Shown: in pieces, positions 1,426 through 7,158 of the stretch
How positions within the stretch are numbered: the first letter of the stretch is position 1
Layout of the letters: every line of letters begins with the position of its first letter
Assembly: GCA_965219415.1 (NCBI GenBank)
Contig: CBDCNP010000002.1
Location: forward strand, 640,001-704,000
DNA length: 64,000 nt
Source of the DNA: Candidatus Marinacidobacterales bacterium
Lineage (GTDB): Bacteria > Acidobacteriota > Vicinamibacteria > Marinacidobacterales > DATDRI01
Direction of reading: 5' to 3'
Position numbers and translations under genes: made by a program
The notes under the pieces: generated by a model
Database searches by the model: none
What the model was told of the DNA's origin: nothing
Seen by the model: only the letters and a program-made list of their open reading frames with translations

Positions 1426-2643
1426 ATGTCGGAAATGGAAGAGAAAGAGCTTCGACTGCTTGGCGCAAGCTACCGTACGGCGCCGGTCGAGGTTAGGGGG
1501 TCTCTCGAGCAGTTCGTTGCCGAGACCCAGGCGCGCTTGCTGCCGAACGAACCAGGAGAGTTGGAGCTCATCGTCCTTTCTACCTGCAATCGCACCGAGA
1601 TTTACGCTTCGGGGCCGATACAGGCTGACTACCTGGATCGATGGTTTCGGCACATTGCCGATAGCGTTCGGCCCGGCAGTGCCTCCTCAAACGAAACCCT
1701 TTATCACCTTCGAGGTGAGTCTGCGGCGCGGCATCTATTCCGAGTCGCTTGCGGACTGGACTCGGCGGTCCTGGGTGATGTGCAGATACTGTCGCAGATT
1801 AAACAGGCCCGGACGGCCGCGAAGGAGGCGGGAAGGCTTGGAGTCTTCCTGGAACGGCTCTTTCAGGTGGCCATCCAAGCAGGAAAGCGGGCAAGACACG
1901 AAAGCGAGATCGGGTATGGTGCGGCCAGCGTGGGCTCCGCCCTTGCCAGCATGCTCCGCCGACGATCGAAATCAGGTTCATTTCGAATCCTCCTTATCGG
2001 AGCCGGTAACGCCGCCCGCAACATTGGTCTGCACCTCGCCAAATCCGAGCTAGGCTCCATCGTGTGTATCAACCGCACCCGCCACAAAGCGAACGAGCTT
2101 GCGCGTCGGTTGGGAGGAGAGTCCCGGCCCTGGGACGAGCTCGAAGCCGCGTTGCTCGAAAGCGACCTTGTCATTGCGGCCACATCGGCCGCCGAGCCCG
2201 TTCTTCAGAAAAACGACCTTGAGGAATTGGCCCAGCGGCGTCGTGGCGAGCCCATTCTGATCGTCGACGCCGGCCTCCCCAGAAACGTGGAGCCGGGCTC
2301 TCCTTTGGACGTGATTGGTATCGATGAAGTCCGTGAGCTGCAGGAACAGGTTTTGGCAAGGCGTCGGGCTTCGGTGCCATCGGTGGAGCGAATCATTCAA
2401 GACGCGGTCGAGGAGTGGGGACGCTGGCTTGCTTCTCGGCCCATAGAGGAAATCGTTCGGTCCTTGTTTCAGGAACTACCCCACTACACCAAGCAGGCGG
2501 CAGCCCGACTCGTCGACGGCGGGGTACTGACGTCGGAAAAAGCAGAACGGATCCTCGCGAAGTCTCTTCGGGAACTGCTCCATGACCACGTCCGTCGTCT
2601 GCGCACCCTCAGTAGCGACGGCGACATCCGACTCATGAATTAG
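1426..2643 (+). CDS. hemA: Glutamyl-tRNA reductase (divergent)
   Basis: LSTCNRTEIY catalytic motif, HLFRVACGLDS, NADPH-binding LIGAG. Confidence 0.9.
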   Translation: MSEMEEKELRLLGASYRTAPVEVRGSLEQFVAETQARLLPNEPGELELIVLSTCNRTEIYASGPIQADYLDRWFRHIADSVRPGSASSNETLYHLRGESAARHLFRVACGLDSAVLGDVQILSQIKQARTAAKEAGRLGVFLERLFQVAIQAGKRARHESEIGYGAASVGSALASMLRRRSKSGSFRILLIGAGNAARNIGLHLAKSELGSIVCINRTRHKANELARRLGGESRPWDELEAALLESDLVIAATSAAEPVLQKNDLEELAQRRRGEPILIVDAGLPRNVEPGSPLDVIGIDEVRELQEQVLARRRASVPSVERIIQDAVEEWGRWLASRPIEEIVRSLFQELPHYTKQAAARLVDGGVLTSEKAERILAKSLRELLHDHVRRLRTLSSDGDIRLMN

Positions 2644-3004
2644 CGGTTCCTACAAGACTTCCTTGACCTTCTCTACGGGCTCGTGCCAGCACGGCCCCTG
2701 CGCCCTTCTCCACGATCGGCCGCTGTATGAGCTCTGGGTGCGCAGCCATCGCATCCAAGATCTGCTTGTCGATCACCTTCGGGCCGTCGAGCTTGAGCTT
2801 CTTGTAGGCCGCTTCTTTCTTTCGCAGAAGCTCTCTGGGTGAAATCCGCATCTTGCGGATGAGGTCCTTGAGCTTCGTCTTCGGAATCGGGTCGACCCTG
2901 TAGTCGACCCTCTTGAAGTCTACGCCGCTCTCCCGGAGCAGCTTCGCCACACTGCGGCACGTGCCTCACGTCGGTTTTTCGTAAACTACTATCTGCTTTG
3001 CCAT
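2633..3004 (-). CDS. ArsC/Spx-family reductase, probable selenoprotein (UxxC)
   Basis: MAKQIVVYEKPT-TGA(2966-2968)-GTCRSVAKLL...HPELIQRPIV in a single frame. An apparent +1 indel near 2680 hides the family-like end PVEKVKEVL* (stop 2650-2652). Confidence 0.82.
2924..2942 (-). promoter_or_regulatory. Candidate bacterial SECIS hairpin
   Basis: GCUGCUC-CGGGA-GAGCGGC, 7-bp stem with G at loop position 2; loop starts 30 nt after UGA. Confidence 0.55.
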
Positions 3005-3017
3005 TCCCCACTCGTCT

Positions 3018-4031
3018 CTATTTGTACGAAACAATGACCGACTCGGACATTCCGGGAGCGGCATGGATTTCGTGATTCGAAAAGCCGGCTTCCCCAAGAA
3101 TCTGTTTGTACTGCGCGAAGGTGTAAGCATCCCCTCTCGGTGTGGAACACAACATCGTGAGCGAGAACATAGCCGCGTCCGGAGGCGACACGCGGTCGTC
3201 ATTGGGCACGAACTCCAGAGTCATCGCCCGCCCACCCGGTTTGAGGGCCCGGTGCACTTTCTTCGCCAACTCGGTGCAGGTAGGGATGTCGAAATGATGA
3301 AAGAAATTCGTCAGCAGGACGAGGTCGTAATCGGTGCCGTAGTCCACCTCGAACGCGCTCCCTGGCTTGAGATGATGTCGGTCACCCACGCCGGCCGCCT
3401 GAGCGTTCTCGGTTGCGACCTCTAGGACGGCAGCCCAATCGACGGCATAGGCTTCCGCCTCAGCGTTTTTTTGCGCCACCTTGATTCCGAAGAGGCCATG
3501 CCCGGCCGCGATGTCCAGCACTTTGATCGGTCCTTGAGGCGGCCCGACGAGCTCGGCGATGAACTGCGCGGACGGAGCGATGAGCGGGGCCATACTCCGC
3601 GCAAACTCGATCCATAGCGGGTTCTCCGCAGTCACCGATCCGTCTTCCTCCATGAGCGTACCGCCCTTTCGGACGGCGCCAGCCACGTCCCGAAACGCAC
3701 CCGCGAGCTCCGGTGCCAAGAGAAAACGCGTTGCCACCCCGACATAGGCGGGCGAGTTCTTATCGAGGAAGAGTGCGGTGTCGGGAGTGAGGCCATAGCT
3801 AGGATCGTCCTTCGTCAAGAACCCGGCAACCACGAGATAGTCGCAGAGAATGCGCACCCCCCGCTCGGAAACGTCGAGCCGCTTGGCCAGTGCGTCAGCG
3901 GAGGTCGCCCCCTGGGCGATCTCGGTGAATAGACCCAGATCGATCGTACCTCTCAAGGCTTCTGTACGTTGGTATGCGTTGATAGTGTTGAAGATGAGCT
4001 CCGGTGACGGAGGTGCTTGCTTGTTATTCAT
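3018..4031 (-). CDS. O-methyltransferase (dimerisation domain plus class I SAM domain)
   Basis: N-terminal winged-helix-like dimerisation region; VLDIAAGHG SAM motif; LTNFFHHFD. Confidence 0.88.
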   Translation of the reverse strand: MNNKQAPPSPELIFNTINAYQRTEALRGTIDLGLFTEIAQGATSADALAKRLDVSERGVRILCDYLVVAGFLTKDDPSYGLTPDTALFLDKNSPAYVGVATRFLLAPELAGAFRDVAGAVRKGGTLMEEDGSVTAENPLWIEFARSMAPLIAPSAQFIAELVGPPQGPIKVLDIAAGHGLFGIKVAQKNAEAEAYAVDWAAVLEVATENAQAAGVGDRHHLKPGSAFEVDYGTDYDLVLLTNFFHHFDIPTCTELAKKVHRALKPGGRAMTLEFVPNDDRVSPPDAAMFSLTMLCSTPRGDAYTFAQYKQILGEAGFSNHEIHAAPGMSESVIVSYK

Positions 4032-4046
4032 AAAAGCCTCACGGGT

Positions 4047-5135
4047 TTATGCAGGTAGGAAGTAGAAGGCGATGGCGAGCATCACGTACACGGCGAACAT
4101 TTGCACGCCTTCCATCCAATGGGTCAGGCCGTCCTGGCTCACGACGACGATGACCGCTACTGCCATAGCGATTGCCACCACCTCCATCGTTGTAAACCTC
4201 AAATCGATGGGGCTCGGACCCACCGCGTAGCTGATGAAAACCAGCAGCGGTGCCGCGAACAAAGCGATTTGAATCGAGGAGCCCACCGCGATGTTGATGG
4301 ATAGATTCATCTTGTTCTTGAGGGCCATGAGCACCGCGGTGGAATGCTCGGCGGCGTTCCCGACCACCGCAACCAGGACGACGCCGATGAAGACTTCCGT
4401 CATGCTCAATGCATGGGCAGCCGCTTCCACCGATTCGATGAGAAGCTCGCTCATGAGGGCCACCGATGCCGCCGCCCCCAACAGGACGAGAAACGAAGTG
4501 CGCTTCGACCAAGTCTCCCCCTCGTGTGCTTTGTCCCCCGAATGCGATCCTCCGACATAGAGGTGAGAGTGGGTTTTGAATGTGAAGACGAGCGAAACGA
4601 GGTAGGTAGCCATGAGCACCACCGCGATCATCAGACTCGTCTCCTGCTCGCTCCGCTGGGCACTGTCGCCCGCGATCATGTGAAAGATCGCGGGGATGGT
4701 GAGGCCGATAGCGCTGAGGAGCAGCATGGTGGAGCCGTGCCCTGCTGCGATCGGATTGAAGGTCTGTCTCTGGTATCGGAGACCACCCAGAAATGCAGAG
4801 AGCCCGAAGACTAACAGGACGTTGCCGATGATGGAACCGGTGATCGACGCCTTGACTAGATCGTGTAGGCCGGCCCGCAAAGCCATGATCGCGATGATCA
4901 ATTCTGCCGCGTTTCCAAACGTCGCGTTCAGAAACGCCCCCAAACCCTCCCCGACCCGTTCCGCCAGGTGCTCGGTTGCTTTTCCCATGAGACCGGCTAG
5001 AGGAATGATGGCCAAGCCGGAGGTGATGAATACTGGCAGCCCGCCCCGATGAAGTACATGCTCGAGCAGAAAGGAAATGGGAACGAAGACGAGCAGTAGG
5101 AGGAGGATGTTTTCCGCAGCGAAAAGTCTTTTCAT
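4047..5135 (-). CDS. cax: Calcium/proton exchanger (CaCA family)
   Basis: Alpha repeats GNAAELII and GNAAEHS; about 10 TM segments. Confidence 0.93.
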   Translation of the reverse strand: MKRLFAAENILLLLLVFVPISFLLEHVLHRGGLPVFITSGLAIIPLAGLMGKATEHLAERVGEGLGAFLNATFGNAAELIIAIMALRAGLHDLVKASITGSIIGNVLLVFGLSAFLGGLRYQRQTFNPIAAGHGSTMLLLSAIGLTIPAIFHMIAGDSAQRSEQETSLMIAVVLMATYLVSLVFTFKTHSHLYVGGSHSGDKAHEGETWSKRTSFLVLLGAAASVALMSELLIESVEAAAHALSMTEVFIGVVLVAVVGNAAEHSTAVLMALKNKMNLSINIAVGSSIQIALFAAPLLVFISYAVGPSPIDLRFTTMEVVAIAMAVAVIVVVSQDGLTHWMEGVQMFAVYVMLAIAFYFLPA

Positions 5136-5196
5136 GATGTGACGGGGCTGACCCGAACGGGCCGGATATTACATCGCACCGCAACAAATTGACAAT

Positions 5197-6081
5197 CTAC
5201 TCGGTGGCTGAGCTGCGTATGGCGAGAAACCGGCCGGCGAACCCATCGATGCTCACGCCGACCCGCCCCGGCATGACCGCTTGAGCGACAGCTACCATCC
5301 GCTGCCGATAACCAATGCCGGTCGAGTCGGAGTCTAATCCCTCCATCGCACCAGGTAGACGGGTGACGCGGGTACGGGCTCCATCCGGGCTTCCATCCCC
5401 TCCAATGAAATGATCGACGATGACCCCGTCCGCAACACGCTCGATACGCTCGAAGAATCGGTGGGGCTCGGCAATCGGGAGGAGCGGAGAGACCGTGATG
5501 ACGACGCGGAGGCCGTCTGCCTTCAGCATGGCGGCTGCCTCGAACCTCTTCTCTAACGAGCTCGCGGGCGGTGGTAAGCCAGGGATCGTTTCGCGATCGG
5601 TCTCGATCGAAATGTGCAAACGCAGATCGCACTGCTTCGCCAACTCGTGATAGAGGTCGGTGTACTGGGTGACCAAATGGGTGTGGGTCTGCACGATGAG
5701 AACGTCGGGAGCCGATTCATTCATCGCCTTCAGCAGACTCTCCGTTACCCGGAAGGTCGACTCCTGAGGCACGAAAGGGTCGGTGGAGCTCGAGAGAAAA
5801 ATACTGAACCCGCCGCGGGCGCGCCCTGCCCATCGGCGCTCCCTTTGATGCTGGCTCCGGTATGCTGCCGCAGCATTCGTGCGGACCTCGAGGAAGCTCC
5901 CCCAATCCTCGCCGCGCGTCAACCAGCGGTTGTGCTGTACATAGCAGCCGACACCGCACAGCGACTTTCCGTACGTACATCCTCGATAGGGCTGCATCGA
6001 ATGAGACGTGACCGTCTTGAGGTAGCCCGAAGTGCGAGTGAGGATGCTACGGACGCGAGTTTCGGTGATGTTGACGCCCAT
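5197..6081 (-). CDS. Radical SAM protein, spore-photoproduct-lyase-like family
   Basis: PYRGC..C..CY cluster (CX6CX3C), LSSSTDPF..QE, SIETD, VSPLLP; start chosen at ATG 6081. Confidence 0.8.
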   Translation of the reverse strand: MGVNITETRVRSILTRTSGYLKTVTSHSMQPYRGCTYGKSLCGVGCYVQHNRWLTRGEDWGSFLEVRTNAAAAYRSQHQRERRWAGRARGGFSIFLSSSTDPFVPQESTFRVTESLLKAMNESAPDVLIVQTHTHLVTQYTDLYHELAKQCDLRLHISIETDRETIPGLPPPASSLEKRFEAAAMLKADGLRVVITVSPLLPIAEPHRFFERIERVADGVIVDHFIGGDGSPDGARTRVTRLPGAMEGLDSDSTGIGYRQRMVAVAQAVMPGRVGVSIDGFAGRFLAIRSSATE

Positions 6082-6138
6082 GACTAGAACCCTAGCGTGC
6101 GGCCACGATAGCACGAAGATCGCGCCCCGAGCAGAGAT

Positions 6139-7158
6139 TCACTCTCGAGATTCTGAGGATTCCTCGTTCCTCGACTCGCCCGGTGACACGTTAGGCACGT
6201 CAGGTGCGGACGCTTCGATTCTGGTCACCCCTTCGTACAAAGACAACTGACCTCCGTAGAACGCCAGTCGAACGACTAATTTGGCAACCAAGTAGGCCTG
6301 ACCGATCGCGAAGGCAAGCACGACACCGGTCATCGTGGACTGCCCTGCTCCGGGAGCCACGAACGCGTACAGGCCGAGCAGCACGATCGCCAAGATGCCG
6401 AGCCCATAGTAAAGTCCGAATGCCTTCGCCGGGTGAGAAAGAACGAACAGAAGGCCGCGCAGCGCCGCCAGCACCATACTGCTACGGTCCTCGACGAACG
6501 TGGCGATCTTCGCGTAGTCGAACGCCATGTTGACCAGAGTGAGCAGAAACACCACGACGGCAGTTCCCAAGAGCACGTAAATCAGGACAGTTCCTTCCAC
6601 GGTGACATCCCGTGTCCAGTAGTCGATTCGTCCGAAGAGCCACTCCGCGAACCGGTAAATAAGGTAGTAGAGAACGCCGGCCAGAACGATCAAACGAACA
6701 AAACGGAAGAAGAACCGCCCGCCGTTAGAGAAAAGACGACTAAGACTGAAGAAGCCCTCCGATTTGGAGAAGCGATCCAGGATCCCACCTACGAAGAGCG
6801 CCCAAACGAGCGCGTAGAGAACCCCCAGCCCGACGACTCCTGGGAACTGTTGGAAGAGGCCACCGAACAACCAGCCTTCGACGTTATTGTAGATGGCGCC
6901 GGGGCCGACGATGGTTGGGGTGAAGGTGCGCTCTAGCCCCACCGCGCCTTCCCGAAACTCTCCATACCAACCCAAATCGAAACCGGTTGCCAACTCCTCG
7001 TGCACCTGGCTGAAACCGATCGACGAGCGGATGGACTCCGACATAACAATTCCGGCGGGAAGCGCGATCGCGAAGTTCACGAGCCACAGCCAGATGACCA
7101 GACCGGGAGATTCGATAGCACGCCACAACCCAACGAAGATGGCTCTTATTGCAGACAT
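6139..7158 (-). CDS. Multi-pass membrane protein of unknown function
   Basis: 339-aa ORF with 6-7 hydrophobic segments, directly downstream of the M1 peptidase. Confidence 0.75.
   Translation of the reverse strand: MSAIRAIFVGLWRAIESPGLVIWLWLVNFAIALPAGIVMSESIRSSIGFSQVHEELATGFDLGWYGEFREGAVGLERTFTPTIVGPGAIYNNVEGWLFGGLFQQFPGVVGLGVLYALVWALFVGGILDRFSKSEGFFSLSRLFSNGGRFFFRFVRLIVLAGVLYYLIYRFAEWLFGRIDYWTRDVTVEGTVLIYVLLGTAVVVFLLTLVNMAFDYAKIATFVEDRSSMVLAALRGLLFVLSHPAKAFGLYYGLGILAIVLLGLYAFVAPGAGQSTMTGVVLAFAIGQAYLVAKLVVRLAFYGGQLSLYEGVTRIEASAPDVPNVSPGESRNEESSESRE

Follow-up and report, generated by a model that had tools for sequence, protein, structure and literature searches.

Selenoproteins of the ArsC family are a kind already known, in print since 2005-2008 in those parts of the literature that list them. 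'Arsenate reductase' selenoproteins with a UxxS motif (U standing for selenocysteine, Sec) were reported from the Sargasso Sea in 2005 with 14 sequences (PMC1088965), 'ArsC-like' selenoproteins were placed in Desulfotalea and Desulfuromonas (PMC1794560), and the Global Ocean Sampling (GOS) study of 2008 gave 'ArsC 1' as UxxS and 'Arsenate reductase 2', assigned to cd03032, as UxxC (PMC2398784). These entries support the statement of an earlier note on the DNA studied here, made from its letters alone, that ArsC-like Sec proteins are known. The reviews that followed, in their lists of families, keep 'Arsenate reductase, UxxS' beside 'Arsenate reductase-like protein, UxxC' (2022; PMC9312934) and tie the UxxS form to TIGR00014 and the UxxC form to NF041106 (2026; PMC13188914). 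The other closely related systems are the glutaredoxin-coupled ArsC of R773 and E. coli (1I9D, 1J9B; TIGR00014) and the Spx/MgsR (TIGR01617) and YffB-type (NF008107) proteins. Here we describe an ArsC-family gene in a 64,000-nucleotide (nt) stretch of DNA from Candidatus Marinacidobacterales bacterium (assembly GCA_965219415.1, contig CBDCNP010000002.1, positions 640,001 to 704,000), which as a whole is called the window. The sequence evidence makes it very probable that this is a genuine bacterial ArsC (PF03960) selenoprotein gene, with a UGA read as Sec by means of a selenocysteine insertion sequence (SECIS) and with a tail that is frameshifted in this copy.

With the ArsC-family selenoproteins, as far as the cited sources characterize them, the predicted protein shares the ArsC fold, Sec as the first residue of an N-terminal redox motif, Cys homologues and a bacterial SECIS. 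It differs from them in that the clade to which it belongs fits TIGR00014 best, carries UxxC and has no match to NF041106. For this reason the clade is perhaps not separately listed in those sources, judged by these two models.

The R773 enzyme resembles the present protein in fold and core length (residues 4-108 aligned, E 7e-17), and in that alignment, with an offset of one residue, U13 corresponds to Cys12, C16 to Ser15, and R61, R95 and R108 to Arg60, Arg94 and Arg107. We take Cys12 and these three arginines of R773 ArsC to be its catalytic nucleophile and Arg triad, so that Sec13 would hold the position of the nucleophile while the arginines are conserved. The two differ in the active-site motif, C-G-T-S there against U-G-T-C here (Sec for Cys and Cys for Ser), in the long C-terminal extension, which the present clade lacks by ending about 7 residues past Arg-Pro, and in their setting, the present clade being found outside ars operons. 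The Spx/MgsR and YffB-type proteins have in common with our protein the ArsC fold, an N-terminal CxxC-type motif and no link to ars operons, but its scores on their models fall below the cut-offs and it retains the arginines of the arsenate pocket.

The gene is a single minus-strand frame, 3004..2633, of 123 codons when the TGA is read as U, with a TGA stop at 2635..2633. Its parts are the following:

2633..3004, minus strand: the ArsC-family selenoprotein frame, with one in-frame UGA and a shifted tail (own-genome match 3.9e-75, '1 TGA')
3002..3004, minus strand: ATG start codon, 13 nt past the stop of the upstream O-methyltransferase gene
2966..2968, minus strand: UGA, putatively Sec, residue 13, opposite the first Cys of KPT-C-xx-C-R and Cys12 of R773 ArsC
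2957..2959, minus strand: TGC, Cys16, the second residue of U-x-x-C; Ser15 in R773 ArsC
2924..2942, minus strand: SECIS-like hairpin, stem 2942..2936 with 2930..2924 and loop CGGGA at 2935..2931, from folding and covariation
2677..2683, minus strand: inherited insertion of one base, immediately past the Arg108 codon; beyond it the frame departs from the family consensus
2650..2679, minus strand: what is left of the ancestral tail, read in +1 as PVEKVKEVL and closed by TAG at 2652..2650 (ORF 2650..2754; tails of relatives)
2633..2680, minus strand: shifted tail ARREGQGSLVGTANS and TGA stop, with an 11-nt overlap with the 3' end of hemA; modelled as disordered

Upstream of the UGA the N-terminus reads MAKQIVVYEKPT and the downstream part starts with GTCRSVAKLLRESGVDF, which gives MAKQIVVYEKPT-UGA-GTCR around the codon. 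Translation table 11 splits this frame into the last 12 codons of a spurious open reading frame (ORF), 2966..3202, which ends in MAKQIVVYEKPT and the stop, and the ORF 2633..2950 of 105 amino acids with a GTG start. The earlier note had held that these two predicted ORFs are really one frame, that the UGA falls on the first Cys of the family's CxxC motif and that a hairpin with a G in its loop lies 30 nt downstream; all three statements stand, the first by the frame itself and the others by the results that follow. The read-through product matches Pfam ArsC (PF03960) at 3e-15 with 56.7 bits (gathering threshold 24) and Pfam Glutaredoxin at 1.7e-7, and a PF03960 search of the genome finds it, at 49.5 bits, as the sole copy in 8 Mb. 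The PF03960 match is confined to positions 1-70 of the 79 in the profile and was therefore the first sign of an abnormal C-terminus.

Our data show that the UGA stands where homologues have either UGA or a Cys codon. A word-indexed protein search returned 787 matches, of which the best full-length ones are 115 residues long, carry the motif KPT-C-T-T-C-R and in most cases bear the source label 'arsenate reductase (glutaredoxin)'; among the listed homologues examined, 115 of 119 have CxxC. The nearest entries (P0002, P0004 and P0122-P0125) begin at MAKLLRESG, directly past the UGA, because gene callers truncated them. Whole genomes were searched with stops read through, in a sample of 41 genomes of the order and a sample of 401 genomes of the phylum (E <= 1e-10), and a homologue was found in 2 of the 41, the source genome counted, and in 53 of the 401. 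Counted by hand, exactly one TGA is present in 31 of the 54 phylum-sample matches and none in the other 23. The position of the TGA was checked for 16 of those 31 (the loci with DNA, our own copy included), and a seventeenth TGA locus, L025, comes from the order sample. At the codon aligned by tblastn with query residue 13, the 31 loci L024-L054 have TGA in 17 cases and TGT or TGC in 14, so the UGA at this codon is shared with 16 further homologous loci, which belong to several families of the phylum. When the best 80 loci are taken with one genome per species of GTDB, the proportion is 79 TGC/TGT to 1 TGA, the lone TGA locus being on the same contig as L025 (genome G007). This closest relative, 64-67% identical, has the same TGA, a hairpin and a canonical tail, all of which rests on one unpublished genome. 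Judged from these sequences, ArsC-fold U-x-x-C proteins appear to be common in the phylum, with Sec forms making up more than half of the copies there.

Some side observations were made on the same samples. The phylum sample is dominated by AT-rich, small genomes, and the nearest relative was deposited as a Vicinamibacteria metagenome-assembled genome, a label that fits poorly with the very different composition of many matches in that sample. One contig of the phylum sample (G097:C1) has two TGA-containing paralogues on the same strand, at 240319-240642 and 229629-229955, about 10 kb apart. A Cys form with TGT (L047, G341:C39) has a good hairpin, CCGUUUU...AAAACGG, near the place of the SECIS in its Sec-form relatives and may be a recent Sec-to-Cys conversion.

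Downstream of the UGA the minus strand can form the hairpin GCUGCUC-CGGGA-GAGCGGC (2942..2924), with a 7-bp stem and a 5-nt loop that has G at its second position; the stem begins 23 nt and the loop 30 nt past the UGA. Its fold in isolation has an energy of -10.1 kcal/mol, which is matched by 7 of 200 shuffles. The consensus for the bacterial SECIS (bSECIS), as quoted in the relevant part of a recent review, is a loop of 3-9 nt, a stem of 4-16 bp, a G in the first two loop positions, a distance of 16-37 nt from UGA to loop and a minimum free energy (MFE) of -7.5 kcal/mol or lower (PMC13188914), and the 2942..2924 hairpin agrees with every constraint quoted there. In the 11 Sec forms that share its register, 77 of 77 pair cells are paired and three pairs are changed on both sides, and none of 500 shuffles reached either the pairing or the covariation score; GCUGCUC/GAGCGGC, GUUGUUU/AAACAAC and GCUGUUU/AAACAGC are examples of the compensatory changes. 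In the same columns of 14 Cys forms, 61.2% of the cells pair, which is the level of the shuffles (256/500). An Rfam scan of the whole window at gathering thresholds gave no match, a result that is uninformative for a SECIS in a coding region.

The earlier note had proposed looking for selA, selB, selC and selD, and all four are in the genome, an assembly of 8.05 Mb in 3 contigs that is 96% complete with 8.45% contamination. The scores of selA (569.7 bits), selB (375.8 bits) and selD (328.3 bits) are each above the curated cut-off, as is that of tRNA-Sec (69.7 bits), which ARAGORN also calls as tRNA-SeC with anticodon tca. The selD gene (L011:1471-2520, G000:C3) itself contains one in-frame TGA, VTCAG-U-ASKLSP, in the N-terminal glycine-rich loop, at the position where SelD, as we take it, usually has Sec or Cys. 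The selenophosphate synthetase of this genome is thus predicted to be a selenoprotein too.

Past Arg108 (2683..2681, minus strand) the product departs from its family and reads ARREGQGSLVGTANS up to the stop, whereas all 30 other loci keep the canonical tail P-x-E-[RK]-x-x-x-[IL]-L followed by a stop. This tail is highly conserved: among 118 homologues its residues recur as P in 117, E in 107, R in 114, L in 106, E in 101, I in 113 and L in 104, and 110 of the 118 end at the identical length. The ancestral tail can still be read in the +1 frame as PVEKVKEVL-TAG (2679..2650), close to the ...ARPVEKVKELL of close relatives, and this agreement identifies the lesion as a one-base insertion at 2683..2677. 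The shifted tail is common to three protein alleles (P0002, P0122, which equals the product described here, and P0123) on 6 contigs. Contigs from the runs of four studies span 2400..3400 with no indels, and the TGA as well as the inserted base is present in them. Two of these contigs match the window exactly, two depart from it by four substitutions, and one run with an identical contig may be the source of the window itself. Among the listed runs that contain the gene, none is recorded as RNA, a result that bears neither way on expression. The indel at about 2680, which the earlier note had wanted mapped with reads, is an inherited mutation and no read error. AlphaFold models P0084, an intact Cys homologue, with a C-terminal helix at residues 108-113 (mean predicted local distance difference test score, pLDDT, 88.9; last blocks 90 and 85), and the present product with a confident core (blocks of 77-93) and with residues 112-124 at 34-45 and free of helix. 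According to these models, the insertion swaps a conserved nine-residue C-terminal helix for 15 unrelated residues. As a consequence of the frameshift the frame now enters the 3' end of hemA by 11 nt (2633-2643), whereas the ancestral stop (2650) left a 6-nt gap to that gene. Programmed frameshifting that restores the old tail was set aside, as no slippery motif or evidence was to hand and no test for it was made.

The family models place the protein nearer to the glutaredoxin-type ArsC than to Spx. The best NCBIfam model is TIGR00014 (arsenate reductase, glutaredoxin), with 94.4 bits over positions 1-107 of the 114 in the profile; the domain is incomplete, its C-terminal helix being replaced past Arg108, and the intact Cys form P0084 scores 107.0 bits and passes the cut-off of 106.05. 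For all 16 other Sec forms TIGR00014 is likewise the best model, at 71-108.8 bits, and 2 of the 16 pass. On TIGR01617 (Spx/MgsR) the product reaches 62.8 bits against a cut-off of 75.05, and among the 16 other Sec forms L052 alone passes (77.3), all 16 scoring higher on TIGR00014. Of the two families in the label 'ArsC/Spx family' given from the letters alone, the glutaredoxin-type ArsC is the closer one, with the product short of both cut-offs. The YffB-type model NF008107 gives 33.4 bits, below its cut-off, and the model NF041106, 'ArsC family (seleno)protein' (cut-off 85), does not match the product at E <= 0.01, gives 20.2 bits with P0084 and has no match among the 16 Sec forms at 1e-8. 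Among solved structures the best match is 2mu0 (2.2e-24), followed by R773 ArsC (1i9d, 1jzw; 7e-17) and Spx (about 7e-6). The site of residue 13 and the arginines R61, R95 and R108 are invariant in an alignment of 45 sequences, and this conserved Arg triad points to an oxyanion pocket of the ArsC type. The protein would thus be an ArsC-fold Sec/Cys oxidoreductase for which arsenate reduction is possible. The recurrent neighbours of its relatives are glutamate dehydrogenase-x-RadA, tryptophanyl-tRNA synthetase (TrpRS)-x-ScpA/DinB and DUF2237, and because the clade sits in such housekeeping neighbourhoods, outside ars operons, a general thiol-redox role seems about as likely as arsenate reduction.

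We propose that the UGA at codon 13 is decoded as selenocysteine, with the hairpin 23 nt past it acting as the bacterial SECIS. The SECIS would recruit SelB with Sec-tRNA(Sec), made by SelA and SelD, to a ribosome paused at the UGA, and the product would be a thioredoxin-fold redox protein of about 115 residues with the active site U13-G-T-C16 and the arginines R61, R95 and R108. In catalysis, Sec13 may attack an oxyanion or disulfide substrate, of which arsenate would be the obvious candidate, and Cys16 may resolve the adduct as a selenenylsulfide that a thioredoxin, glutaredoxin or glutathione system could then reduce. With a Cys at +3, such an intramolecular selenenylsulfide could replace the glutathione adduct that R773 ArsC forms.

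Could the unusual features of the gene be explained in other ways? Were the TGA a plain nonsense mutation or an assembly error, translation would yield just the 105-residue product that starts with the GTG at 2950, or no protein at all, and gene callers do annotate that truncated product, as the six entries starting after the UGA illustrate. We regard this as almost certainly wrong and already largely refuted, since the TGA is identical in the contigs of the four studies, recurs at the same codon in the 16 other loci from several families, stands in place of the catalytic Cys, is followed by a covarying hairpin and occurs in a genome with complete Sec machinery, and since the truncated ORF would be without strand 1 and the active site. 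It is equally hard to credit that a sequencing error produced the frameshift near 2680 in a gene whose true tail is canonical; the tail is legible in the +1 frame and the close relatives P0124, P0125 and P0004 have the canonical one, but the contigs of four studies cover the site without indel letters, including a strain with 4 single-nucleotide polymorphisms (SNPs), and three distinct protein alleles on 6 contigs have the shifted tail. A regulator like Spx/MgsR, which binds RNA polymerase through a CxxC switch and is no enzyme, would be consistent with a CxxC-type motif in an ArsC fold, with the 62.8 bits on TIGR01617 and matches to Spx structures at about 1e-5, and with a gene outside any ars operon. 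We consider it very unlikely, because the score falls short of the 75.05 bits that TIGR01617 requires and TIGR00014 is the best model for each of the 16 other Sec forms, because the matches to solved ArsC enzymes are much stronger (2.2e-24 and 7e-17, against 7e-6 for Spx), and because the arginines of the arsenate pocket are invariant.

The points that weigh against a genuine ArsC selenoprotein gene, or qualify it, concern the hairpin, the family assignment and the state of this copy. The 11 sequences used for covariation were picked for their shared hairpin register, and in the remaining six Sec forms the G-loop hairpins, read by eye, occupy different registers: UCUCCU-G[G/U]C-AGGAGA in L043, L051 and L052, and GUCAAGA-GGA-UCUUGAC in L038, L048 and L049. 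MFE folding of 66-nt windows regains the hairpins in 10 of the 17 Sec forms by hand count, and the 73-nt region around our hairpin is of ordinary stability (z -0.71; 49/200 shuffles); as that fold is not significant, the isolated hairpin and the covariation were relied on instead. The conservation of the hairpin may also be partly driven by the protein, since its stem overlies the conserved peptide LLRESG. On the side of the family, the product falls below the TIGR00014 equivalog cut-off (94.4 versus 106.05), and ORFs of ars families (arsR, arsB/acr3, arsA/D, arsM) number 0 of 58 in the 1.5-kb flanks of 30 related loci. As for the state of this copy, the substitutions between strains are non-synonymous in the gene in 2 of 2 cases (Y35C and I78T), and the allele P0123 has G27R and R57I. 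In the 45-sequence alignment G27 and Y35 are invariant and R57 nearly so, and because allele differences fall on such residues this copy is possibly decaying. These last points bear directly on a proposal that nests within our reading and concerns the functional state only, namely that the Sec-gene lineage is real and the present copy is already a pseudogene, its helix lost, its product unstable or inactive and the gene drifting toward loss with the UGA and SECIS intact. We give this a little less than an even chance. The tail that has been replaced is highly conserved in the 118 homologues and is a helix in the P0084 model, the substitutions between strains in the flanks (hemA and the methyltransferase gene) are synonymous in 2 of 2 cases, position 103 is Gly here and Arg or Lys in 117 of the 118 homologues, and 39 of the 40 order relatives gave no match to the gene, among them the two other species of the genus (94% and 91% complete), so loss is common in the lineage. 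Against this, the counts are very small (four SNPs), some of the alleles derive from metagenome assemblies, the three shifted alleles have no second frameshift or stop, the core fold, the U-x-x-C motif, the arginine triad, the start codon and the SECIS remain intact, and this is the only PF03960 gene of the genome. On such small numbers, the function of the frameshifted copy is probably reduced, and the gene may be in the first phase of being lost.

The surroundings of the selenoprotein gene comprise these genes:

3018..4031, minus strand: O-methyltransferase gene, upstream on the same strand (PF00891 and dimerisation domain)
4047..5135, minus strand: Na/Ca exchanger (cax-type) gene
5197..6114, minus strand: radical-SAM-like gene, with a PA0069-family match below cut-off
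1426..2643, plus strand: hemA, glutamyl-tRNA reductase, convergent

The same-strand run with an O-methyltransferase, cax and a radical SAM protein that had been read from the letters is present, with the radical-SAM-like match lying below cut-off. These neighbours (the O-methyltransferase gene 13 nt upstream, the exchanger, the radical-SAM-like gene and hemA) differ from those of the closest relative and point to no functional link with the selenoprotein gene. The radical-SAM-like ORF scores 77.7 bits on NF033668 against a cut-off of 360, has sub-threshold NCBIfam matches to the PA0069, Rv2578c and mobile-pair-B radical SAM families and no Pfam match at 1e-3. Directly upstream of it on the same strand lies an ORF of 339 codons (6139-7158, minus strand) with many hydrophobic stretches and no match in Pfam or NCBIfam. 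A promoter scan of 2300..6400 gave one promoter-like site, 5195..5166, where 1.2 are expected, and a terminator scan of the same interval gave no terminator-like site placed to end the selenoprotein gene. Over 2300-6400 as a whole, 10 terminator-like sites were counted, most of them inside coding regions, against 2.8 +/- 1.6 expected from shuffles.

Standard gene calling truncates this selenoprotein gene, and the database entries for it and for its nearest relatives start past the UGA, so public protein sets lack the active site. A corrected gene model adds one selenoprotein to the list for this organism and leaves what is known of Sec decoding and of the ArsC family unchanged, and the frameshift in the tail is a natural experiment, if a small one, on the question whether selenoprotein genes decay and in what way. 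A bolder view, which we put forward tentatively and think rather unlikely, is that the U-x-x-C proteins of the TIGR00014-like clade may form a selenoprotein family of their own, with a housekeeping role outside ars operons, and that this genome may have caught one such selenoprotein at the first step of loss. If that were true, a C-terminal frameshift under relaxed constraint, with the UGA, the SECIS and the machinery intact, would be a distinct route of selenoprotein loss, unlike the usual Sec-to-Cys conversion or gene deletion.

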